DNA from: Candidatus Omnitrophota bacterium
GTDB taxonomy: Bacteria > Omnitrophota > Gorgyraeia > S143-82
Length of the DNA: 64,000 nucleotides
Direction: 5' to 3'
Assembly: GCA_015494585.1 (NCBI GenBank)
Contig: WGAY01000036.1
Coordinates: 9,462-73,461 of the forward strand
The notes under the pieces are model-generated. The model saw only the letters and a program-made list of their open reading frames with translations, made no database searches and was not told the DNA's origin. The position numbers were made by a program, and so were the translations under genes. Of this stretch, positions 2,692 to 28,669 are shown in pieces. Within the stretch, counting starts at the first letter, position 1; each line of letters starts with the position of its first letter.

Positions 2692-5478
2692 CTAAAATAT
2701 TATCGAATAGAAGATAATCCCACCCTTCGGGCCTGGTCTCTGAGCTTCTTCGCCTGACATCTGATAGAGATTGTCCCTTAATTTGAATATCTCTTTGAAA
2801 AATAGTCCTATCTTTGTATCCAATCTTAGGGCACGCTGACGGGCATAGTATTTAAACTCTTGGATAATCCCGCCCCCTTGTGAACTGTCTTTTTCCTGGG
2901 AAGAAAGGATATTTTTTTCTGTAAGGACCTCGGCTAGCATTACTGTCTTGGCATCTGCTGAGACGATTTTCTGCATTATTGTATCTACATCATCCATAAC
3001 TGCCATTACATCATCTACAGCAAGATAATTCTCTAATGCCTCCTCTACTGCACCTCTATCATTATCGGAAAAGGCCAATGTTAGCTCGTAATAGAGTCCC
3101 TTTGCCTCTTCAGATACAGATACCTCCTTTACTCCCGAAACCCCCTTGAGGTCCTCCTCGAATTCTTTTCGTTCTTTCTGAATCAGTTTATCCCACTTCC
3201 TATTTGCTTTGACATACGCGGTAAGGATCTTATTATATGAAGGGAATTCATTGGCAAAAAAGGCCCGTACTTTATAATGGATATCCTCTGGTCCCTTCTC
3301 AAGTATCGCTTTGGCCCTTTCTGAAAGTGATTTCCCTTGCAAATATCTATCTAACAGCCCGGGATCCTTCCGGAACTTCCTCTCAAAGACCTCGTGTAAA
3401 AATGCTAGGATAGCTGCATTCTTCAAATCTTCCTCAGACATAAATCCCCTACCATAGATGGCATTATAATATTCAGGATTACCCTTGCCTAGTATAGCCT
3501 CAAACAGCCCCTTATAGAGGGCTATGTTGTCTCTATCGTTATAACCAAAGAGGTCAAAGGCAACCTCTTCTATCTCGTAAAGTCCAACCGAGGAAAACAC
3601 AACATCTATATCCCTATCTGAAACAAGCCCATTTAATCCTTTCTCTTCTTTGACAAAATCAATTATTGCTGACTTGACTTCTCCCAGTTCATCCTCAGAG
3701 AAGACTTCAGTTAATCTCTTTACCTCTACCACCTCCTCCAGTTCCTCACCCTTGCTCTCAATACTAGCCAGAAGTCTTCCCATCCCTGGCTCAAAGACAA
3801 CATCTACAGAACCAATGTTGTTCCCCTTATCCTTTCTCTTCTCTAAGAGGGAATAGATGTAATAGGCCAATAATGTACCTGTGCTTACTCCAAGTCCTGC
3901 CCATATAAGGGCTGTTGGCATTGGTTCCTCCTTGACAAAGCCTGCGGATTTTAAGAAGTTGTATGCAATATCTAAGTCCTTGCCGTTTACTCGCTCCTGT
4001 GTAAAATAGGCCGCCTCACCACTAGTGAGAGGAGGCAACTTGTATACGTAGATACGATGGCCATTCCAGTTCATCACATCTTTTAAAATGGCCTTCCTCT
4101 GGAGACGACCAAAAAACAGGTCCCCGGTTATGTCAGGGAATTCAACATCTATAGTGATAACAAATCTCTCTCCTCTCAGCAGATCTACGAAGATTATGTC
4201 CTTATGAAGGTCCAATAATTGCTTTATCTCATAGGCAATCTTATACACATCGCCCCCTGCCACTGCTGGCATTGGCATTCCAAAGAGATAGTAAAGTCCG
4301 GCTGCAGAGGCAATCAAGACTAGTCCAGCAAGCCCCTTTAAGGTTGGCTTTATCTCTGCCTTTCTCTTTTCTTCTATAGTTTGTCTGCCTTTATCAGGCG
4401 AATATTGGGGGGCAGTCTTATCTATTTTTTCATTTTGGGCAGGGTTCTGAGCAAGGAACTCGAAAGTCTCCTCTACATCAGGGACCTCTTTTGGCTTCAG
4501 GCGTTGTTTTGTATCCAGGACAATACCGCCGCCGTAAAACTGCCAATCATCACCATAGGAATCCCAGAGACTGCGTTTATACATAATCACATACTGATCA
4601 AGATACTCTCTAGGAGTCCAATGGGATGTGGACTGCAGCCCGTCTATCTCTCCACTATCAGCAAGCTCTGAAAAGGCAAAGTCTATTTTATCCCTAGCAA
4701 ATTTCTTGTACCACTGGGCAATTATGCATGCATTGTATACCTGGCGTAGGAGGGTATACTTTACATCACTGTTCACCAATTCTATTAATCTGGGTAGTAA
4801 TTTTTCCTTTATCAGTCCTTCTGCATACCTGTCAAATTTTTTCTGGTACTCATCGGCATCAGCTGGCGTATGTATCTGAAACTTTACATCAAAGGTGGCA
4901 TTCTTTATACAGAATCCTGTCCTAGACATAAAGGACTCTATTTCTCCAGGTACTATCCAGAACCTTGGGTCAAACTGCCAGTTGTCTTTTTCAGGGGCAA
5001 TGGATGCACCATAGTCCAATAGATCATCCCAGATTCCCAGCTCCTGAGAGAGCTGTTTCACATCCTCTTTAAGCTTTACATCTGAATACATCAAGACCTT
5101 GCCTATATCAGTATAGAGGAGCTCATGACCGATAACCTGCAAATCGTTCAGGTTAACATTCAGGTTGACCCATAGCTGGGTATCGGGTATGGCCAGGGCC
5201 AGTAAAAAGAATTTTATGTTTTCTTTTCTCTGCCTTTCATCTATCCCCCTATTCCTGGAGTGTTTCCAGGCAAATATTATGTTCCCACCATCGTTGCTTA
5301 CATCCTTAAGATCTATCCCTATCAAATAGGTAGTGGGGACATATCCTAGCACCTGAGAGACATCAGGATAGTCAAATGTCACTACAACAGGGTTAGCATA
5401 AACTGGATAGGCATTAAATATCAAAGAAATACTGATGACCACCACAAACAACCAGTAACCTAACTTCCTACACCGCAT
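2692..5478 (-). CDS. Hypothetical large membrane protein (928 aa): signal peptide, two internal TM segments, no recognisable catalytic motif
   Basis: The N-terminus MRCRKLGYWLFVVVISISLIFNAYPVYA is signal-like. Hydrophobic segments lie at about residue 385 (LAGLVLIASAAGLYYLF) and about residue 520 (ALIWAGLGVSTGTLLAYYIY). The frame is long and clean with protein-like composition. Confidence 0.65.
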   Translation of the reverse strand: MRCRKLGYWLFVVVISISLIFNAYPVYANPVVVTFDYPDVSQVLGYVPTTYLIGIDLKDVSNDGGNIIFAWKHSRNRGIDERQRKENIKFFLLALAIPDTQLWVNLNVNLNDLQVIGHELLYTDIGKVLMYSDVKLKEDVKQLSQELGIWDDLLDYGASIAPEKDNWQFDPRFWIVPGEIESFMSRTGFCIKNATFDVKFQIHTPADADEYQKKFDRYAEGLIKEKLLPRLIELVNSDVKYTLLRQVYNACIIAQWYKKFARDKIDFAFSELADSGEIDGLQSTSHWTPREYLDQYVIMYKRSLWDSYGDDWQFYGGGIVLDTKQRLKPKEVPDVEETFEFLAQNPAQNEKIDKTAPQYSPDKGRQTIEEKRKAEIKPTLKGLAGLVLIASAAGLYYLFGMPMPAVAGGDVYKIAYEIKQLLDLHKDIIFVDLLRGERFVITIDVEFPDITGDLFFGRLQRKAILKDVMNWNGHRIYVYKLPPLTSGEAAYFTQERVNGKDLDIAYNFLKSAGFVKEEPMPTALIWAGLGVSTGTLLAYYIYSLLEKRKDKGNNIGSVDVVFEPGMGRLLASIESKGEELEEVVEVKRLTEVFSEDELGEVKSAIIDFVKEEKGLNGLVSDRDIDVVFSSVGLYEIEEVAFDLFGYNDRDNIALYKGLFEAILGKGNPEYYNAIYGRGFMSEEDLKNAAILAFLHEVFERKFRKDPGLLDRYLQGKSLSERAKAILEKGPEDIHYKVRAFFANEFPSYNKILTAYVKANRKWDKLIQKERKEFEEDLKGVSGVKEVSVSEEAKGLYYELTLAFSDNDRGAVEEALENYLAVDDVMAVMDDVDTIMQKIVSADAKTVMLAEVLTEKNILSSQEKDSSQGGGIIQEFKYYARQRALRLDTKIGLFFKEIFKLRDNLYQMSGEEAQRPGPKGGIIFYSIIF

Positions 5479-7452: not shown

Positions 7453-8054
7453 AACATGCCCTTTGGTTCAAAAATAATAAGGTAAGACATAGTCTGGTTT
7501 GCATCGTCAACCATTCCTTGCCTTATCCTTACCCTCTTGACAAAATTTGACATATCAGTAAGAGAAATCGCCGCCCTTAACTCATGGAACTTGCGATTAA
7601 AATAGTCTAGGTCATGTTTATCGTCTAACAAAACCATCCCCCTAATCATGAGAAGATGGCGCTTTGCCTTTTTCCCACGAACCCATCTTATATCTCTCAC
7701 CCATGCATTCTCAGGAAGATATTTGTATAGAAATGGCCACAGTTCTTCCCAAAATTTAGTAAACTCCTGTCGTCTGAGAAATGAAGAATACTGAAGTATA
7801 TACTGTTTTTTGATCTCCAATTGCATTAGGAGTTTTTCTGCAAACCTGTACCTAGATCTATATATATCCAATAATTTGAAATGGCGATAGATATTGCGCG
7901 AAGGACGGATTAACAGGTAATAAGAAGTCAACACTAATATCGTAACCAAACCGATCTTCCACAATAAAGAGATCAAAACCCTATTAATCTGTTTCAGATT
8001 TGTATAGTATGTAGAGAAATTGACGATTTTCATATTGTGCCACCTGAATTTCAT
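7449..8054 (-). CDS. Hypothetical single-pass membrane protein (201 aa)
   Basis: TM segment at about residues 26-48 (VLISLLWKIGLVTILVLTSYYLL), followed by a basic, helical region. Same size and topology as the downstream neighbour; the architecture resembles PilN/PilO or GspL/GspM. Confidence 0.55.
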   Translation of the reverse strand: MKFRWHNMKIVNFSTYYTNLKQINRVLISLLWKIGLVTILVLTSYYLLIRPSRNIYRHFKLLDIYRSRYRFAEKLLMQLEIKKQYILQYSSFLRRQEFTKFWEELWPFLYKYLPENAWVRDIRWVRGKKAKRHLLMIRGMVLLDDKHDLDYFNRKFHELRAAISLTDMSNFVKRVRIRQGMVDDANQTMSYLIIFEPKGML

Positions 8055-8057
8055 TTA

Positions 8058-8669
8058 TTATACCACAGGATTCTCGACAATCGTAGCCTGGGAATCAAGA
8101 TTTACAGAGACTGAGATCATATCACCACGCGAAAGGACACCAATACCAGGAGGGGTACCTGTACTAATAATATCGCCCGGATATAATGTCATAATATGGG
8201 ACACAAAAGATATCAAATAAGGGATATCAAAAATCATATCCTCACTGGATGAATCCTGAACCAGCTGGCCATTGAGGAAGGTTCGCAGCCGTAGCCTGCT
8301 AAAATCTTCTTCCTTTGTTATCGTTATTCGTTTCTCTGCAATTGGACAAAAAGAATCAAACCCCTTAGCCCTGGTCCATTGGCCATCTTTCTTCTGTAAA
8401 TCCCGCGCTGTAACATCGTTTAAAGCTATCACACCCGAGATTACAGATAATACATCCTCGCGACGGAGGTCCTTACACCTTTTAGAGATGATAACCGCTA
8501 TCTCGCCCTCGTAATCCACACGACCTACACCAGCTGGGAGGACGATAGGATGTCCGTTCTTCGTTACAGCACTATCTGGTTTCAAAAATAATACAGGCTC
8601 TTCCGGTATATCCATATTTAATTCAGAGGCATGCTCTTTATAATTCAAACCAACTAAGATTATCTTCAT
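8058..8669 (-). CDS. Fumarylacetoacetate hydrolase (FAH) family protein
   Basis: LFLKPDSAV...HPIVLP...DYEGEIAVIIS...LYPGDIISTGTPPGIG. This is the classic FAH-fold 2-keto-4-pentenoate hydratase/isomerase signature. Confidence 0.85.
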   Translation of the reverse strand: MKIILVGLNYKEHASELNMDIPEEPVLFLKPDSAVTKNGHPIVLPAGVGRVDYEGEIAVIISKRCKDLRREDVLSVISGVIALNDVTARDLQKKDGQWTRAKGFDSFCPIAEKRITITKEEDFSRLRLRTFLNGQLVQDSSSEDMIFDIPYLISFVSHIMTLYPGDIISTGTPPGIGVLSRGDMISVSVNLDSQATIVENPVV

Positions 8670-11036: not shown

Positions 11037-11330
11037 TAATCCGGATTATGCATTAGACGTCTCCATCTTTGCTTGCATTCAATTTCTTTTATCATTAATT
11101 AATTTCAAATCAACCGTTTTATCCCTGTGCTAAATAAAACTCAAATCTCAAAGCCAAAAAGTAAAATCCACAACTAAAATCCCTAAAACTGCTATCTATA
11201 TAGCTATCAACACTATTCTTAACCAGTACGGTTTATTCACATTATAGCTTTCAATTTTTTTATTCCTCTGTCAATAAATTCTATTATATCACAGAACCGC
11301 TATTAGATATTCTGGGATTATTATACCATC
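11037..11330 (-). repeat. Copy C of a roughly 300 bp repeated intergenic leader-like element
   Basis: It shares the CCCAGAATAT...AAAAGTAAAATCCACAACTAAAAT...CTAATGCATAATCCGG architecture with copies at 14056-14412 and 24495-24778. It ends 20 nt before the moxR ATG. Confidence 0.6.
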
Positions 11331-13444: not shown

Positions 13445-14070
13445 AATGTAATCTGAGAAACAGGTTCGTAACTGCGTCTATGTACCCTAGAAGGGCCTAA
13501 TCTATTTATTATCCTTATATGCTCTGCAGTCGCATAACCCTTGTGACGAGAAAAACCATATTCTGGATACAGGACATCTAACCCTCTCATAATCCCGTCC
13601 CTGACTACCTTGGCTAATATAGATGCGCAAGAGATCTCAGGAACCAGTATATCTCCCTTTACTACCGATTGACAACATCCTGATAGATCAGAAGGCAGAT
13701 CTATACTATCCTTACCATCTATTAACACCTCAAACCAATCATCTAGTTGCTTATACTTCTCCAAAAACCTATCCAGGGACCTGGACATTCCCAACAATGT
13801 AGCACGCCTTATATTTAATCTATCAATGGTATATACATCCACTATCTCTACTGCCCAATATACGTTTTCAACTATGTACCTAAATGCACGAAGGCGTTGA
13901 GAATTATTAAGCCTTTTGGAATCTGTAATCTTTATATCCTCTGGAAAGTCAAACCCTTCGGGTAGGGCCACAGACGCACATACCAATGGACCTGCCAATG
14001 GTCCTCTGCCCGCCTCATCAATTCCTATAATCAAGCCTGCTCCTTTACTAGATAAACTCGGATTATCCAT
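13438..14070 (-). CDS. rnhB: Ribonuclease HII (the true start is possibly TTG at 14034)
   Basis: GIDEAGRGPLAGPLV active-site motif. The first 12 codons (MDNPS...) derive from the repeat element. An AAAGGAG Shine-Dalgarno sits 5 nt before an in-frame TTG, giving MIIGIDEAGRG. Confidence 0.9.
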   Translation of the reverse strand: MDNPSLSSKGAGLIIGIDEAGRGPLAGPLVCASVALPEGFDFPEDIKITDSKRLNNSQRLRAFRYIVENVYWAVEIVDVYTIDRLNIRRATLLGMSRSLDRFLEKYKQLDDWFEVLIDGKDSIDLPSDLSGCCQSVVKGDILVPEISCASILAKVVRDGIMRGLDVLYPEYGFSRHKGYATAEHIRIINRLGPSRVHRRSYEPVSQITLW

Positions 14071-14412
14071 TAGAATTCTTTATCTTCCATCGCCCTGTTA
14101 ATCAAACCTCTCTTCCCTCATCCAAATATAACTCAAATCTAAAATCTCAAAAGTCAAATCCACAGCTTAAAACCTTAAATCTTTTTATTTTATCCCTTTT
14201 TCCATTACCCCTTTATCGTCGGCCAAGCTTCCAGTTCCTGCGCAACACCTTTCTCCCTGTAGATCTACCTGCCCTGTGTAAATTAAAATCAGCAATCAGC
14301 TTTTACTTTTGAGTTGTGGTTTTTAGTTTTGCGTTTTGAGTTTTTAGTTATTTTAATTTGTCCCACAACGAGTTCCACTATATTACAAATTCCTATTGCA
14401 TAATTTGGGAGT
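14056..14412 (-). repeat. Copy A of the roughly 300 bp repeated intergenic leader-like element
   Basis: Near-identical to copy B over more than 100 nt (TCTTCCATCG...CCAAATATAACTCAAATCTAAAATCTCAAAAGTCAAATCCACA). It contains the inverted motif TTTTGAGTTGTGGTTTTTAG. Confidence 0.65.
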
Positions 14413-14420
14413 ATCCTTTA

Positions 14421-21908: not shown

Positions 21909-22598
21909 TTATTTGAGTTCTTCTTCCTCACCCCTGACGACATTATTGCCCTCTATAGGCGTGGTATCTGGCTGTACTTTTTGCAGTTCAGGCAGTATTA
22001 CTATCTCCACCCTACGGTTTTTCTTTCGCCCTTCAGGAGTATCATTGGAAGCAATGGGTTTATACTCCCCATAGCCAATTGCAGTTAATCGATTAGGCGG
22101 AACGCCTTTTTTCTCTAGATAATGCAGGACATTTACTGCCCTGGCTAGTGAAAGCTCCCAATTCGACTTCCAACCAGAGTATTTTATCGGTTGATTGTCT
22201 GTATGTCCTTCGATCCCTATATTTCTATCGGCAATCTTATTAGTCAATATATAGGCAACCTTGTCGAGAACCGGATAGGCCTCTGGTTTGATATCTGCCT
22301 TTCCAGAATCGAACAAAATATCAGAGGTAAGGGTAATGACAATCCCTCTATTTGTAAGATTTAAACTAACATCTTTATTGGCTATCTCCTCTTTCAATCG
22401 CTTTTCCAAAAGGGCCTTTATCTTTTTTAGCTCTTCTAATTCGCTCTGCTTGATCTGAACCTCTTTTTGTGTCTCTGAGAGTTTGCTTTCTAGTTCAGAG
22501 ATTTTCTCAACATCCGAAGAGAGTCGCTTTTGTATAACAATCGAACAACCCGGGAAAAAGAAAACCCCTAAAAACAGTGCCAAAATCCACCTTATCAT
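21909..22598 (-). CDS. OmpA/MotB-domain lipoprotein with a coiled-coil linker
   Basis: Lipobox (FFPGCS), a coiled-coil segment, and a C-terminal OmpA-like peptidoglycan-binding motif (GHTDNQPI...NWELSLARA...NRRVEIVI). Confidence 0.8.
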   Translation of the reverse strand: MIRWILALFLGVFFFPGCSIVIQKRLSSDVEKISELESKLSETQKEVQIKQSELEELKKIKALLEKRLKEEIANKDVSLNLTNRGIVITLTSDILFDSGKADIKPEAYPVLDKVAYILTNKIADRNIGIEGHTDNQPIKYSGWKSNWELSLARAVNVLHYLEKKGVPPNRLTAIGYGEYKPIASNDTPEGRKKNRRVEIVILPELQKVQPDTTPIEGNNVVRGEEEELK

Positions 22599-22671
22599 AT
22601 TTCCCTCCTATATACTCAACATTTTCGTGAACAAATATGGTAACACAGGCCCATAAAAAAACAAGCAAAAT

Positions 22672-23073
22672 TGGTGGAGGTGCGGGGAATCGAACCCCGG
22701 TCCCTATCGCGGATGCAGGAGAGGCCCTACATGCTTAGTTGCCCTATTGGATTTCACTGCAGGCATGCCGGGCAACGGGCTTACCTGCAGCTAGCCTTTT
22801 AATACTCCTAAGGTACAAAGGCAAACTCCCTTAAGAGGCTGCTATAGTTCTCTGCTGTGCAGGCCTAACAGCAAACCCACACAACAGGCCTTGTTAATTA
22901 CCTAACAAGGGCTGGAGCAAAGGCCATAGGCATTGCACCTGCGTTTGCAATAGCCTCTGCCTCTGCAATGAGTGCTTCATCGGCACTTATTTTACGGGTT
23001 TTTTACGAGGCCACCCGAACCTCGGCATGCTCCTCTCGAGCACCTTTCGCATAGGTCGAGTCCGTACACCCCC
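22672..23073 (-). ncRNA. ssrA: tmRNA (ssrA)
   Basis: Minus-sense 5' end GGGGGUGUACGGACUCGACC and 3' end GGGUUCGAUUCCCCGCACCUCCACCA. The acceptor stem pairs 5' GGGGGUG with CACCUCC and includes the G3:U70 alanine identity pair. A T-arm-like GGGUUCGAUUCCC is present, as is an internal ORF-like segment GCAAACGCAGGU...UAA. Confidence 0.85.
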
Positions 23074-23171
23074 ATATTGTCAAAGTACAACAAAATCAAT
23101 AAGATTTGACCTTATATTATAATACACGGGGAGTGGTAAAAAAGCAATAAAATTTATCAGACGGAAACTGG

Positions 23172-24260
23172 TTATCTCTTAATAACTGAATCAATCAATA
23201 CATCCAATCCTTCGCTAAACCTACGGAAACTAAACCGCTCAACATAATCAGGAAGTAATTTCTTCTTTTCTGACAATGATCTCTTATCGCCTACTATCAT
23301 ATTCAAAAACTTTGCTATCGAATTACTGTCTCCCTCTCGAATCAGAAATCCGACATCCTCATTAACGACTTCCTGTAACCCCCCTACCCGCGTTGCCAGG
23401 ACAGGTATACCAAGCTCCATTGCCTCAAGGGCCGCTAGGCCAAAACCCTCCTGACGGGATGGCATCAAAAAGAGATCAATAGCCGACCAGAATAATGCCT
23501 TATCTAAGGCGGTAGACTGATAGCAAAAGACCTTGCCCTGCAAGCTAGGATCTTTTAGATATTCCTTTAACTGCCCATCATAACGGACATCACTGGTAGT
23601 AAAGAAAAGCAAACATACTCCTTCCACGCTTTTCATTGCCTCTAAAGCAATATCCCAGCCCTTCACAGGTGAAAGTCTAGACAGCATTCCAACGACTAAC
23701 CTGTCTTCTGGCAGACCAAGATTTTGCCTGGCAATATCCCGTACCTGCAAGACCTTCTTCTTCAATAAATTCATTTCATCGGGATCAAGGCAATTATACA
23801 GGACTTCTATGCGGCCACTGTCATATCCCAGTTCAGTAATAAGCCAATCCTTTACTGCAGAGGATACAGCGATTGTAATATTTCCTTGGCACCTGAAAAT
23901 CCTCCGGCCAAGATTAGAGGAATAAAGTCCATGGGCCGTTGTAATATATGGTACTTTCTTTTTTCTAGAAACAATTGCAGATAAAACCGAGGTTATGCGT
24001 GTATGGGCCCATAATAGATTTACCCCCTCGCGAGAAACTATCTCCTCAATTCTACGATAAAGCATCAAATTATGAAAAGAAAACGCATTTTTCCCCTTAA
24101 TAGGAATTATATAATGCCTAACTCTACTCGAACATAATCCACCAGCCGTAGCAAGTAGCACACTATGGCCTCTCTCCTCAAGGGCCCTTTTTGCGGTAAG
24201 GATGTAGCTGGTAATACCACCTGGATTTATGTGATTTGAAAGGATCAAAATTTTAGCCAT
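23172..24260 (-). CDS. GT4-family glycosyltransferase
   Basis: N-terminal GT-B fold and a C-terminal E(x7)E-like region (SRQEGFGLAALEAMELGIPVLAT). Confidence 0.85.
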   Translation of the reverse strand: MAKILILSNHINPGGITSYILTAKRALEERGHSVLLATAGGLCSSRVRHYIIPIKGKNAFSFHNLMLYRRIEEIVSREGVNLLWAHTRITSVLSAIVSRKKKVPYITTAHGLYSSNLGRRIFRCQGNITIAVSSAVKDWLITELGYDSGRIEVLYNCLDPDEMNLLKKKVLQVRDIARQNLGLPEDRLVVGMLSRLSPVKGWDIALEAMKSVEGVCLLFFTTSDVRYDGQLKEYLKDPSLQGKVFCYQSTALDKALFWSAIDLFLMPSRQEGFGLAALEAMELGIPVLATRVGGLQEVVNEDVGFLIREGDSNSIAKFLNMIVGDKRSLSEKKKLLPDYVERFSFRRFSEGLDVLIDSVIKR

Positions 24261-24263
24261 AGA

Positions 24264-24488
24264 TTATATCCAGCTTCCACAGACACTGCACTTCTGTGGA
24301 CCTTCTCCTTTTTTTTCACAAATGGCATTGCAATAAGGACATTTTTTGACATCTGCCCTAGAAATAGTGCGGTTGCTGTTATCACGACTTTTTTCTCTCC
24401 AGTAATCTCTTGCCCACAGATAAAAAAGAGCCCCTATCCATAGACTCAAAAAAAAGACTATCCATACAGCAAAAGGGACCTTTAACAT
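24264..24488 (-). CDS. Small membrane protein with a C-terminal zinc-ribbon
   Basis: One TM segment (VWIVFFLSLWIGALFYLW) and CPYC...CSVCG. Confidence 0.5.
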   Translation of the reverse strand: MLKVPFAVWIVFFLSLWIGALFYLWARDYWREKSRDNSNRTISRADVKKCPYCNAICEKKGEGPQKCSVCGSWI

Positions 24489-24494
24489 ATACCA

Positions 24495-24778
24495 ATTATC
24501 CCGGACTATGCATTAGGATTTCTTTTTCTTCCATCGATTTGTTAATCAATTCTCTTTCCTTATCCAAATATAACTCAAATCTAAAATCTCAAAAGTCAAA
24601 TCCACATCTTAAAACTTAAATCTTTTATTTTATCCTTTCTCTTCTCTTCATCGTCAGCTGAGCTTTTAATTCTTGCAATCCGTTTTTACCCTCCTTGGCT
24701 CCGCTTTCTCTTATACTCTATTTTAAAACAGTTTTGAGCTTTGAGTTGTGGTTTTTAGTTTTTAGTTAATATTAGTAT
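24495..24778 (-). repeat. Copy B of the roughly 300 bp repeated intergenic leader-like element
   Basis: Aligns with copy A from CCCAAATTATAC through GAGTTGTGGTTTTTAG to CTAATGCATAGTCCGG. Confidence 0.65.
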
Positions 24779-24787
24779 AATTTGGGG

Positions 24788-26119
24788 TTACAGTTTCTCG
24801 GCTGCAAGGGAGGCAATGTCACTTCGCTCACTCTTTGTCAACATAATATGTCCAAAAAGACGCTCTCCCCGCAGGCGCTGCACACAATAGCTCAACCCAT
24901 TGCTAGCAGCATCTAAATAAGGACTGTCTATTTGATAGGGATCTCCTGTAAGTACTATCTTGCTCCTCTCCCCGACTCTCGAGATAATAGTCTTTACCTC
25001 ATGGGGAGAAAGGTTCTGGGCCTCATCTATTAATATGTATTGAGAAGGAATGCTCCTCCCGCGCATATAGGTAAGGGCCTCTATTTCTATTATCCCCTCT
25101 TCCAGGAATTTTTCTACCTCTATCTTAGAAAATTCCTTATGTCTGCCTTTGTGCTGGCGGTTGTTTAAAATAAATTCCAAATTATCGTATATTGGTCCCA
25201 TCCAGTTTGATAGTTTCTCTTCCTTTGTACCAGGCAAATACCCTATGTCTCTTCCTAGAGGCATTACAGGACGTGACACAAGCATCCTAGTGTAACTCTC
25301 CTCATCTATAACTTTATGCAAACCCGCCGCCAGGGCAAGCAAGGTCTTTCCTGTCCCTGCCGCACCCACCAGGGTAACCAGCTTTATGCTTTCATCCAAA
25401 AGCAGATGGAAGGCCATTACCTGTTCCTTATTTCTAGGTTTTATAGACCATATGGCCCCAGCTTTGTTTACAAGCGGAACCAATTTATTCTTCTCTGCCT
25501 TATAGATAGCAATTCCACTGTGATTGGGATTGTCTTCGTCTCGAACTACAATAAATTCGTTTGCAAACAATTCTATCTCCTGCTGCAGGGATAATTCCCC
25601 CTTTGAGAATAGTGTATCCATCTCTGTAAACGGCAGATAGATCTCACGCCATCCCTTATAAAGTTCGTCAAATTCGACCCTATCCTTCACAAAATCCTCT
25701 GCCCGTATACCAAAGGCATTTGCCTTTACCCTTAGATTTATATCTTTAGTAATAAAAATAACCTCTGTACTTGGGTCCTCTTTTTGAAGCAGATAAACGG
25801 TCATAAGCATCCTGTTGTCCGCAAGGTCCGGGCTTATACGAAGTGCCCTAGCCGCTTCACTTAGATCCAAAAAAGAAGGTATTCTGAGTCTTCCTCCATT
25901 CTCAAGGGAGACTCCCTCAGAAAAATTCCCCTGGCGTCTAAATGTATCGAGGGTCCTTATCACATCACGGGCATTCCTCCCTAGCTCATCGTCAACCCTC
26001 TTAAATTTATCTAGCTCCTCTAGGACCTCTATGGGGAGAATCACCTCGTTTTTGCCAAAAGAAAATAGTGCATTACTAGAGTGCAACAATACATTGGTAT
26101 CAATCACAAATCTTTTCAT
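24788..26119 (-). CDS. PhoH2-type protein (N-terminal PIN domain + PhoH ATPase)
   Basis: PIN segment (MKRFVIDTNVLLHS...) and PhoH Walker A (LVGAAGTGKTLLALAAG). The internal ATG start was chosen so that the gene does not overlap hisF. Confidence 0.85.
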   Translation of the reverse strand: MKRFVIDTNVLLHSSNALFSFGKNEVILPIEVLEELDKFKRVDDELGRNARDVIRTLDTFRRQGNFSEGVSLENGGRLRIPSFLDLSEAARALRISPDLADNRMLMTVYLLQKEDPSTEVIFITKDINLRVKANAFGIRAEDFVKDRVEFDELYKGWREIYLPFTEMDTLFSKGELSLQQEIELFANEFIVVRDEDNPNHSGIAIYKAEKNKLVPLVNKAGAIWSIKPRNKEQVMAFHLLLDESIKLVTLVGAAGTGKTLLALAAGLHKVIDEESYTRMLVSRPVMPLGRDIGYLPGTKEEKLSNWMGPIYDNLEFILNNRQHKGRHKEFSKIEVEKFLEEGIIEIEALTYMRGRSIPSQYILIDEAQNLSPHEVKTIISRVGERSKIVLTGDPYQIDSPYLDAASNGLSYCVQRLRGERLFGHIMLTKSERSDIASLAAEKL

Positions 26120-26147
26120 CCCACTTCCCTTCTGTTGATATCGTAAA

Positions 26148-26909
26148 TCAAGCCTCTCTGACCTCAACCCCTCTAGTTTTGAGATAATCCTTTAGCTCAG
26201 ATATACTCAATTCATTATAGTGGAACAAAGATGCCGCAAGGGCTGCATCGGCTCCACCTTCTGTAAGGGCAGTATAAAAATCCTCCTTACTGCCTGCCCC
26301 ACCTGATGCAATGACTGGGATGGATACTGCTGAACTAACCGCACGTGTAAGTTCTATATCGTATCCCGCCTTAGTACCATCTCTATCCATGCTGGTCAAC
26401 AGGATCTCTCCCGCGCCTAAATCCTCCGCCCTCTTTGCCCACTCAACCGCATCCAGACCCGTATCTATTCTGCCCCCTTCAACAAATACATTCCAGGCCC
26501 CTTCCCTTACCTGTTTGGCATCTATAGCAACCACTATACATTGTCTCCCAAAGCGCCTTGCGCCATCCTTTATAAGAGAGGGATTACGCATAGCAGAAGT
26601 ATTAATAGAGACCTTATCCGCTCCAGCTAGAAGGAGATTTCGGATATCCTCTACAGTCCTTACCCCCCCACCAACCGTCAGAGGCATAAATACCTGCTCG
26701 GCTGTCCTCCTTACCACATCTATTATAATTCCTCTCTTTTCATAGCTTGCCGTTATATCCAGAAACACCAGTTCATCAGCTCCTTGCTCATCGTAGACAA
26801 CTGCATTTTCGACTGGATCGCCGGCATCCCTTAAGTCCAAAAAGTTTATCCCCTTTACCACACGTCCTTCCTTTACATCCAAACACGGTATTATACGCCT
26901 GGCCAGCAT
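26148..26909 (-). CDS. hisF: Imidazole glycerol phosphate synthase cyclase subunit
   Basis: [20 protein letters not shown]...VGGGV...ASGGAG. Confidence 0.95.
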
Positions 26910-26910
26910 T

Positions 26911-27495
26911 CTAATCCTCCAGAATATCCTTCATCATCTTCCGAACAAGAGACAGGGGAAAGCCCATCACATTATAAAAACAACCTTCTATTCTATTAAT
27001 AAAAGAGCCAGCAAATCCCTGTATGCCAAACCCTCCTGCCTTATCCAATACATCTTCTCGTCTTAAATATTCATCTATATCCTCATTTGACAAGGCATCC
27101 ATGAAAACCTTGGTTTTCTCTACGCCACATCTAACTTTATCACGATAAACCATATAAACACCCGTTAAAACCCAATGGGGATTTCTAGAGAGAAAATACA
27201 AAAATTCCTTTGCCTGAGACAAATCTGATGGCTTCCCAAATATCCTACCACAGAATACCACCGTATCTGCTGATATAAGCAGGGTATTCCTCTTTAAATT
27301 GCCAATTACTGACTCGGCCTTTACCCTGGCATTCTCCAACACCACTGACTCGGCTTGCCCCAGGTTTTCAGCAAAGTCTTTTTCCTTACACCCAGCTGGA
27401 ACAATCACATCAAAAGGCAAGCCAAAATAAGAAAACAGCTCCCTTCTTCTGGGAGAACCCGAAGCAAGAATAATCTCAACAGCATGCTTCAACAT
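26911..27495 (-). CDS. maf: Maf-like nucleoside triphosphate pyrophosphatase
   Basis: [13 protein letters not shown]...ADTVV...K.... Confidence 0.9.
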
Positions 27496-27496
27496 A

Positions 27497-28669
27497 TTAT
27501 CTACGCTTTAACTCCTCGATTTTCCTGTGAAGTAGAAATTTCTGTTGTGGAGAAAGTTGGGAAAGAAATACCCCCACCTGGTATACACCATCACCTATAT
27601 GCCGTTTCCATACGGTCTTAGCATCAACCAACAACCTCTCCCCATCACTAAATACTATTTCTAAATCATACAGCCCGCCTTCTTCTATCTCCACATTGGC
27701 AAAAAACATCATTCCCACTATACATATGTTTCTTGCCATTATCTTGTGTCCCTTACCAGAGGTATCGTAAAGCATAACGCGGACAGAATCTGTATCATCT
27801 AAATCCACCCTCTCCCAGTATCTCCTATTCCTAAAACTAATGCTTTTGTCTTGTTTCACAATAATACTAGTATCTCCACCTTTCTCTTTGGCCTGATACA
27901 GGGCATCATCTGCTACCCTGAAAAATTCCCTTACATTTGCATAGTCAGGAGAATATTCTACAATACCCGCACTAAAACTAAAGGAATTGTCTATACCTTC
28001 TATCTTAAATATCTCACTGTGTTCTCGTAATTTATTTTTTATGCTATCCAACCTCTCCTGAGCCAGTTCACCCGAACTACCAGGGAAAATAACCAGGAAT
28101 TCATCTCCACCATATCTAGTGACTATATCCGTAGGCTGAAGATTTTTCAAAAGGAATTTCCCAAACAGCCTCAGAAGCATATCCCCCTGAACACTTCCAA
28201 GACGCTCGTTCACCTTCTTAAAGTTATCTAAGTCAATAATTGCAATTGTCAAGGGCCTACTATGTTCTCTGATCTTTTCTATCTCATTCTCTAATACATC
28301 CAGCGCATAAAAGGTATTTCTTAATAGATCTTCTTCGTAACACCTGGAAATGTTTACTACTCGTTTGTTTCTCAGAGAAGCATAAAGTAATACGCCGATA
28401 GATATAAAAAATAATATCTTCGATGGAAGTAATCTTAGGGCCCATTCCCTGATCTGAACATCTACCAAGAACAACGTCTCAAAGAGTACATAGACCGAAA
28501 CAAGGCTAGACCAGAAAAGAGCGGGTTTCCCTCCCCACCACAAACCAACAAAGATTATAGGCAGACCGTAAAAATAATCTATTCCTAAGCCATAAGGACC
28601 TGCAGAGAGGGAAAACAAAAACAAACCCAGATATATGGCTGCAATAAAAAGAATCTGTCTTATATTCAT
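27497..28669 (-). CDS. Membrane diguanylate cyclase (GGDEF) with a C-terminal PilZ-like domain
   Basis: Polytopic N-terminal region, then RYGGDEFLVIF with an upstream RxxD-like segment. The C-terminal roughly 100 aa (RRYWERVDLD...LYDTSGKGHKI...) is PilZ-like. Confidence 0.75.
   Translation of the reverse strand: MNIRQILFIAAIYLGLFLFSLSAGPYGLGIDYFYGLPIIFVGLWWGGKPALFWSSLVSVYVLFETLFLVDVQIREWALRLLPSKILFFISIGVLLYASLRNKRVVNISRCYEEDLLRNTFYALDVLENEIEKIREHSRPLTIAIIDLDNFKKVNERLGSVQGDMLLRLFGKFLLKNLQPTDIVTRYGGDEFLVIFPGSSGELAQERLDSIKNKLREHSEIFKIEGIDNSFSFSAGIVEYSPDYANVREFFRVADDALYQAKEKGGDTSIIVKQDKSISFRNRRYWERVDLDDTDSVRVMLYDTSGKGHKIMARNICIVGMMFFANVEIEEGGLYDLEIVFSDGERLLVDAKTVWKRHIGDGVYQVGVFLSQLSPQQKFLLHRKIEELKRR

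Follow-up and report, generated by a model that had tools for sequence, protein, structure and literature searches.

What are the three similar intergenic segments that recur, all in one orientation, within a single stretch of DNA from an uncultured Candidatus Omnitrophota bacterium? The stretch, hereafter the window, is 64 kb of contig WGAY01000036.1; all coordinates are counted within it, and the three element copies, A, B and C, are read on its minus strand. A first-pass annotation had left several readings of these segments side by side: structured 5' leaders, small RNAs (sRNAs), or an element resembling a miniature inverted-repeat transposable element (MITE) with promoter and upstream open reading frame (uORF) signals. 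Only the MITE reading stood up to analysis, through terminal inverted repeats (TIRs) of IS1380 type, target duplications, and filled and empty insertion sites, whereas the structured leader, the sRNA and the uORF did not. We conclude, with a probability that we put at about 0.9, that the segments are three copies of one MITE, a non-autonomous DNA transposon which a DDE transposase of the IS1380 family mobilizes in trans.

Pairwise BLASTN and a repeat-family alignment bear out the first observation, that the segments are homologous and share one sense relative to the downstream minus-strand gene. Copy A matches copy B over 184 nt (82.6% identity, E 9e-45) and copy C over 83 nt (76% identity, E 1e-11), and no fourth copy was found by BLASTN in the window. 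All three sit between co-directional minus-strand genes: recO and moxR (copy C), a surA-like gene and rnhB (copy A), and a PIN-PhoH gene and a gene for a zinc-ribbon small membrane protein, 11 nt upstream of which copy B ends. With boundaries refined against ~40 copies elsewhere, the window copies measure 277-353 bp and contain no long open reading frame (ORF).

The element is bordered by 17-bp TIRs, with CCCAAATTATGCAATAG as the 5' arm and CTAATGCATAATCCGGG (reverse complement CCCGGATTATGCATTAG) as the 3' arm, and the two arms agree at 14 of 17 positions. The common start CCCARAWTAT and the common end CTAATGCATAATCCGG picked out earlier are both present and are the two arms of this repeat. 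At three mismatches or fewer, the TIR pattern is matched six times in the window compared to 1.23 expected, a number reached by none of 100 shuffles, and five of the six window element ends fit it at the same threshold. The same ends recur at the ends of ~40 copies in another Omnitrophota metagenome-assembled genome (MAG), JALVWL.

Which transposase recognizes such ends? Scanning a metagenome collection with the 5' end CCCAAATTATGCAATAGG gave 112 loci, in which paired ends lie mainly 162 bp apart, some 51-208 bp apart, and in one case 1468 bp apart. This last element (L083, 5672-7139) has a perfect 17-mer at both ends and a single ORF of 429 aa, which matches the NCBIfam model of IS1380-family transposases (NF033539; 238.9 bits against a cut-off of 180, E 7.6e-71) and the Pfam domain DDE_Tnp_1_4 (PF13701; E 1.9e-45) and has 4574 homologues at E<=1e-30. 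Nine more autonomous copies (L141-L149) were retrieved via two of these homologues. All nine have CCCAAATTATGCAATAG as their left end, which in all ten autonomous elements is identical to the 5' end of copy A. The right end of six of the nine (L144-L149) is CCCGGATTATGCAATAG, which has the AAA/GG asymmetry also seen in the window copies, and the 3' ends of our copies differ from this insertion sequence (IS) right end by one or two mismatches. The transposase gene of the autonomous copies reads toward the CCGGG end, and exact 5-bp duplications flank L141, L142 and L144 (ATTAT, ATTAT and TTTAA, respectively).

Target-site duplications are equally regular in the family. An exact 5-bp duplication flanks 48 of the 61 short elements in the metagenome loci, compared to 10.4 expected when flank partners are permuted (1000 permutations; maximum 19), the duplicated pentamers being TTAAA in 17 cases, TTTAA in 12, TTTAT in 6, and others. 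Among the full copies of the JALVWL MAG, exact 5-bp direct repeats flank 5 of 11 (ATGAA, TTTAT twice, TTAAT and ATAAT), and the flanks of some of the remaining ones agree at 3-4 of 5 positions. The targets are AT-rich pentamers (TTAAA, TTTAA, TTTAT, ATAAT and ATAAA), duplicated on both sides; direct repeats of 4-5 bp characterize the IS1380 family (PMC12116815). A 162-bp copy nested within a window-type element (L014 3239-3399) is flanked by an exact ATTAA duplication. It belongs to a 162-bp MITE subfamily that has near-perfect versions of the same 17-bp ends around unrelated cargo, is found at ~45 metagenome loci besides L014 (e.g., L070 160-321), and is plentiful in one metagenome set (Ga02568xx), on contigs with 25-40% G+C.

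These duplications also bear on a different origin, in which the segments would be palindromic repeats of the REP/BIME or ERIC kind, spread by a RAYT (TnpA-REP) protein or by recombination instead of a DDE transposase. The segments do resemble such repeats in being intergenic, palindromic, mosaic in their modules and present in many copies, but exact 5-bp duplications and the 17-bp TIRs of an IS1380 element are foreign to REP/RAYT systems, and a non-exhaustive look through the loci revealed no RAYT gene. We regard this origin as the least probable of all the alternatives considered here.

Is there direct evidence that the element moves as a unit? One representative genome per species was scanned with the most conserved core of the element, GGATTTNACTTTTNNNNTTTNAGATTTGA, which gave 26 matches, 23 of them in the single Candidatus Omnitrophota MAG JALVWL01 and many of these beside contig ends. 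The remaining three, in a "Patescibacteria group" MAG, were set aside, as they contain only GATTTGA/GATTTTTGA heptads without TIRs or other similarity; these heptad arrays (L005 6721-6753, L018 5875-5907 and L024 2241-2280) are probably unrelated low-complexity repeats. BLAST with copy A returned ~40 copies or fragments in the fetched loci, the full-length matches beginning near query position 12-17 and ending at 367, and full-length copies of the JALVWL MAG are 80-89% identical to copy A over query positions 12-367. One JALVWL locus (L014) is syntenic with window positions 22228-27500 at 80-89% nucleotide identity, and the MoxR proteins of the two genomes are 95% identical; by sequence comparison, the JALVWL MAG represents a sister species of the window organism. 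Other assemblies of the window organism itself break within the repeat.

Comparison with this sister species revealed filled and empty sites. A full copy of 375 bp (L150 3131-3505) sits exactly at the equivalent of the ATAAA pentamer at 8054-8058, between the stop codon of the FAA-hydrolase gene and the ribosome-binding site of the next gene, and is flanked by ATAAA and ATAGA. Once the element and a single pentamer are taken out of L150, its sequence equals that of the window except for two substitutions. A second copy, of 373 bp (L014 6683-7055), occupies the equivalent of 23158-23181, where the window has a spacer of 22 nt. The converse holds for the copies present in the window: both junctions of copy B are common to the orthologous site of the sister species in L014, so that this insertion is older than the species split, and the related MAG has an orthologous 3' end of copy C in front of moxR. 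Both insertions, B and C, are old; the presence of other copies varies between the two species. In more distant relatives, whose MoxR is 79% identical, the spacer between trkH and moxR is 60-75 nt long, and no TIR was found across 11 kb. The elements are thus small and dispersed in many copies, with TIRs that match an autonomous IS encoding an IS1380-family DDE transposase, and at the level of the family they show a 4-5 bp target duplication and presence or absence at orthologous sites, all of which are marks of a MITE.

Two of these sites show further rearrangements in the sister species. At the copy B site (L014 3217-5362; window 24500-24786), two direct element copies flank a gene for a 443-aa ATPase (3634-4965) that is absent from the window, and TTTAT adjoins the inner end of each copy. 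This arrangement looks like a circle of element and gene integrated by inter-element recombination, or like a composite transposon. Upstream of moxR, two tandem 3' TIRs lie 5 nt apart (L150 1-166 and L151 1-160), which suggests a second insertion beside the orthologue of copy C, and this site may be an insertion hot spot.

How would such an element have reached its present positions? An IS1380-family transposase would act in trans on the MITE through the common 17-bp ends and would insert it into AT-rich pentamers, duplicating them on both flanks. Copies end 0-60 nt before a start codon because the target pentamers fall in the very short spacers between stop codon and ribosome-binding site of a compact genome. 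The preference for the sense orientation would then reflect selection, since a sense copy would keep the co-transcription of its flanking genes intact, and a sense copy may in addition provide an outward-facing promoter of the kind present in known IS1380 elements.

Several observations weigh against this account. Copies A, B and C themselves have no intact duplication, their flanks agreeing at only 2-3 of 5 positions, so that their status as insertions follows from family membership and from the sister-species comparison; degraded duplications are consistent with old insertions. Neither the window nor ~130 kb fetched from the related MAG yielded an IS1380 transposase with these ends, an all-against-all comparison of the ORFs in the fetched loci revealed no multi-copy protein, and TBLASTN with the IS1380 transposase matched only L083 and L032 among these loci. 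The hosts of the autonomous copies are far richer in AT, at 25-36% G+C compared to 43% here, and present-day mobility in this lineage is therefore conjectural. None of the 112 TIR-bearing metagenome loci contains the internal modules of the window type, only the ends being common to the IS, so that the 350-bp form seems to be confined to this Omnitrophota lineage. Lastly, no strong sigma-70-type promoter recurs in the element, only weak pairs with 8-9 of 12 consensus positions, and the promoter step is therefore conjectural.

The main reading of the first-pass annotation took the segments for paralogous small RNAs or structured cis-regulatory leaders whose RNA would form a long hairpin. The two arms are indeed partly complementary, and the copies lie in probably transcribed regions between co-directional genes. 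Hairpins formed by the arms alone gave z-scores from -0.9 to -6 against shuffled arms (-1.3 for copy A), but a stability of this kind is expected of any palindromic MITE. The long hairpin predicted from the sequence did not survive folding: the three whole window copies are no more stable than their shuffles (z = +2.2, +0.3 and -0.6), and RNAalifold, applied to the two arms of 14 copies, gave -7.45 kcal/mol with 0 compensatory pairs and did not recover the long hairpin. At the gathering score, Rfam returned no match to the element, only a transfer-messenger RNA (tmRNA) and two tRNAs, and at E<=1 it returned nothing around copies A and C. Moreover, copies differ in their middle module through swaps or deletions, and TIRs and target duplications account for both the ends and the palindromic form. 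With no covariation, no curated-family match and folds equal to shuffles, we rejected a structured RNA or sRNA family, which we hold to be very improbable. The first-pass annotation had itself named a known IS or MITE terminal repeat as the finding that would overturn its leader or sRNA reading, and the ends are indeed TIRs of the IS1380 family. The motif AAAAYCCACAACTMAAA, reported to occur in both orientations in every copy, does so in A and B, whereas C has it in one orientation only; its double occurrence is due to the R5/R3 subterminal inverted repeat described below.

In a related alternative, the conserved terminal block would encode a leader peptide (MHNPG-stop) through which translation of the next gene is regulated. 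The micro-ORF is there as described, reading MHNPD* in copy C and MHSPG* in copy B and lying in frame with the rnhB ORF in copy A. Its ATG is present in 27 of 30 copies, 18 of which have a 5-codon ORF ending in TAA or TGA. However, ATG-CAT-AAT-CCG-GG is simply the sequence of the 3' TIR, the duplicated pentamer holds codon five and the stop (e.g., ATAAT, giving GGA-TAA), and nine copies read 7, 8, 9, 12 or >29 codons. TTG replaces the ATG in the right end of the autonomous IS and in the 162-bp relatives, and no Shine-Dalgarno sequence precedes the ATG in any of the three window copies. A reading frame that lies within a TIR, takes its stop from the duplicated target, varies in length and lacks a ribosome-binding site of its own was rejected as a leader peptide, an idea that we find even harder to credit than a structured leader. 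The uORF signal is lost with it, and the micro-ORF is a by-product of element end and target.

The in-frame arrangement at rnhB has a consequence for annotation. The longest rnhB ORF begins at an in-frame ATG (14068-14070) inside the 3' TIR of copy A, and this upstream ATG is therefore element-derived. The true start of rnhB is probably the TTG at 14034, judging from the TIR boundary and from the ribosome-binding site listed with it in Table 1, and the micro-ORF of copy A is in frame with rnhB by chance. In one public assembly (L002), rnhB is split into two gene calls.

We next consider the orientation of the copies, which is less simply explained than their nearness to start codons. Taking the next ORF of at least 100 aa as the downstream gene, 26 of 28 copies agree with it in strand (binomial p = 3e-6), mostly at a distance of 8-60 nt, and 13 of 15 agree with their upstream gene as well. 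The shared orientation first noted for the three window copies thus extends to the family. Nearness to start codons results from insertion into very short spacers, such as the 24-nt spacer that contains the empty site at 8054-8058. The autonomous copies L141-L149 show the opposite of the MITE bias, nine of nine being antisense to both flanking genes. IS1380 elements are over-represented in co-oriented positions between genes (PMC9208149), and ISEcp1 and ISPme1 have strong outward promoters at the 3' end, where the transposase gene points (PMC9330008). The end of our element that faces the downstream host gene is the CCGGG end, toward which the transposase gene of the IS reads.

Could a MITE of this origin have been co-opted as a portable promoter and 5' untranslated region cassette that tunes the downstream gene, with its heptad-repeat arms as protein-binding sites? 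Besides the sense placement close to start codons and the contrast between sense MITEs and the antisense autonomous IS, this idea can point to a TATAAT at a fixed distance from the 5' end, in the P module (exact in ~12 of 16 copies and often TGTGATATAAT), to a weak outward pair of TGGAAG or TGGAAA, 16 nt and CATAAT that ends 5 nt before the 3' end, and to the strong 3'-end outward promoters of known IS1380 elements (PMC9330008). Yet a consensus scan found no promoter enrichment, with no site of >=9/12 in the elements except one that straddles the flank of copy C, and no terminator-like site inside the elements in either orientation. In conservation, the TATAAT does not exceed the remainder of the element, where copies are 80-90% identical to each other; nearness to start codons follows from insertion into ~25-nt spacers; and the downstream genes are functionally unrelated. 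We therefore consider co-option unlikely, and although we infer that the element may deliver a promoter, the more cautious reading is that selection removes copies with polar or antisense effects from operon spacers. More doubtful still is a bolder version, in which the 350-bp subfamily would be a portable expression cassette that, inserted in sense just upstream of ribosome-binding sites, wires dozens of unrelated genes into one MITE-borne regulon, with an inward promoter in the P module and/or an outward promoter at the CATAAT of the 3' repeat, and with phased heptads (CTCAAAA / TTTTGAG) as sites for a common regulator.

The anatomy of the MITE is summarized in Table 1. Members of the ~350-bp subfamily have a constant order of modules: 5' TIR, P, the A-rich arm R5, a variable middle, the T-rich arm R3, S, and 3' TIR. 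R5 consists of CTMAAAA heptads with AAAACCACAACTCAAA, R3 is T-rich with TGTGGATTTGACTTTTGAGATTTTAGATTTGAG, and the two together form an imperfect subterminal inverted repeat. The variable middle is M1, a hairpin module H, or other sequence, and deletion derivatives are frequent among the copies. In many copies, M1 is replaced by a hairpin module of ~100 nt (GGAGAATGAAGGA ... TCCTTCATTCTCCATGCTCC) with a perfect inverted repeat of up to 31 bp (e.g., L007 1-110, L006 6574-6672 and L014 5103-5330). This module is sometimes doubled, also adjoins contig ends, and may be a separate nested repeat. Immediately past the 3' end of one element copy lie three tandem 12-mers (TTTCGGTTGTCA; L017 5746-5790).

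Table 1. Coordinates of element copies, their modules and related sites in the window
Feature	Position	Strand	Description
Copy A	14057-14409	-	Full-length MITE, 353 bp, in the spacer between the surA-like gene and rnhB
Copy A 5' TIR	14393-14409	-	CCCAAATTATGCAATAG, exact
Copy A P module	14349-14390	-	TATAGT at 14377-14382; TATAAT in the majority of copies
Copy A A-rich arm R5	14306-14348	-	
Copy A middle module M1	14181-14282	-	
Copy A T-rich arm R3	14122-14173	-	
Copy A S module	14074-14121	-	
Copy A 3' TIR	14057-14073	-	CTAATGGATAATCCGAG
rnhB TTG start candidate	14032-14034	-	AAGGAG upstream with a 5-nt spacer; 22 nt downstream of element end
Copy B	24500-24786	-	287 bp; begins 1-2 nt past the PIN-PhoH gene stop
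Copy B 5' end		-	Short, CCCAAATTATACTAATATTAAC; without P module
Copy B R5	24740-24762	-	
Copy B R3	24564-24621	-	
Copy B S module	24520-24549	-	
Copy B 3' TIR	24500-24516	-	CTAATGCATAGTCCGGG
Copy C	11040-11316	-	277 bp, diverged, in the spacer between recO and moxR
Copy C 5' TIR	11300-11316	-	CCCAGAATATCTAATAG, 13/17 positions
Copy C extended -10-like box	11283-11293	-	TGTGATATAAT
Copy C R3	11132-11172	-	
Copy C 3' TIR	11040-11056	-	CTAATGCATAATCCGGA; end 22 nt upstream of the moxR ATG
Empty target ATAAA	8054-8058	-	24-nt spacer past the FAA-hydrolase gene
Empty site	23158-23181	-	Between the GT4 glycosyltransferase gene stop and the tmRNA promoter; 22-nt spacer

The tmRNA gene downstream of the second empty site lies at 22672-23073 on the minus strand (Rfam, 176 bits), and its predicted tag peptide, ADEALIAEAEAIANAGAMPMAFAPALVR, is unusually long.

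How does this MITE compare with known short repeats? The Correia elements (NEMIS) of Neisseria are likewise short, non-coding, TIR-bounded multicopy repeats near gene starts that occur in full-length and internally deleted forms, are co-transcribed with their neighbors, and have had promoter and processing signals ascribed to them. Their TIRs measure 26 bp and their target duplication is TA, and to our knowledge no parent IS has been identified for them, whereas the present element has 17-bp TIRs of IS1380 type, 5-bp duplications and an identified partner family. BOX of Streptococcus pneumoniae and ERIC are also modular, mosaic intergenic repeats with hairpin potential in transcribed spacers. 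Neither a defined transposase partner nor a regular duplication of the target is known for these two, and the Omnitrophota element differs from them in having both. The Tn3-derived TIMEs (PMC4133298) come close in kind, being non-autonomous, having only their TIRs in common with an autonomous transposon, generating 5-bp duplications, and forming mosaic non-autonomous transposons that recall the ATPase gene between two copies in L014, but Tn3 has 38-bp GGGG ends compared to the 17-bp CCC ends of IS1380 type here.

The likeness to IS1380 elements such as ISEcp1 and ISPme1 extends to ends that start with CC and a duplicated AT-rich target of 4-5 bp (PMC12116815), to the CCGGG end that faces the downstream gene here as the promoter-bearing end does there (PMC9330008), and to co-oriented placement between genes (PMC9208149). 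The window elements differ in having only 277-353 bp, no transposase gene, and nothing in common with the IS beyond the 17-bp ends; their host is an uncultured Omnitrophota lineage instead of a proteobacterial plasmid, and their promoter is only conjectural. In the literature, we found no description of MITEs in Omnitrophota, nor of an IS1380-derived MITE family with these ends. The class of mobile repeat is ordinary, and what is new is its occurrence in an uncultured Omnitrophota lineage.

Recognition of the MITE accounts for a conspicuous repeat that fragments Omnitrophota assemblies, whose contigs end within it, and its boundary corrects gene starts, as at rnhB, where the annotated ATG lies inside the element. 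It also provides a defined transposon system, with a 17-bp end, a 5-bp AT-rich target and a partner IS1380 transposase, for a phylum without genetics. Finally, the near-exclusive sense orientation of the copies upstream of genes lends itself to testing, as an effect either of selection against polarity or of promoters delivered by a MITE.

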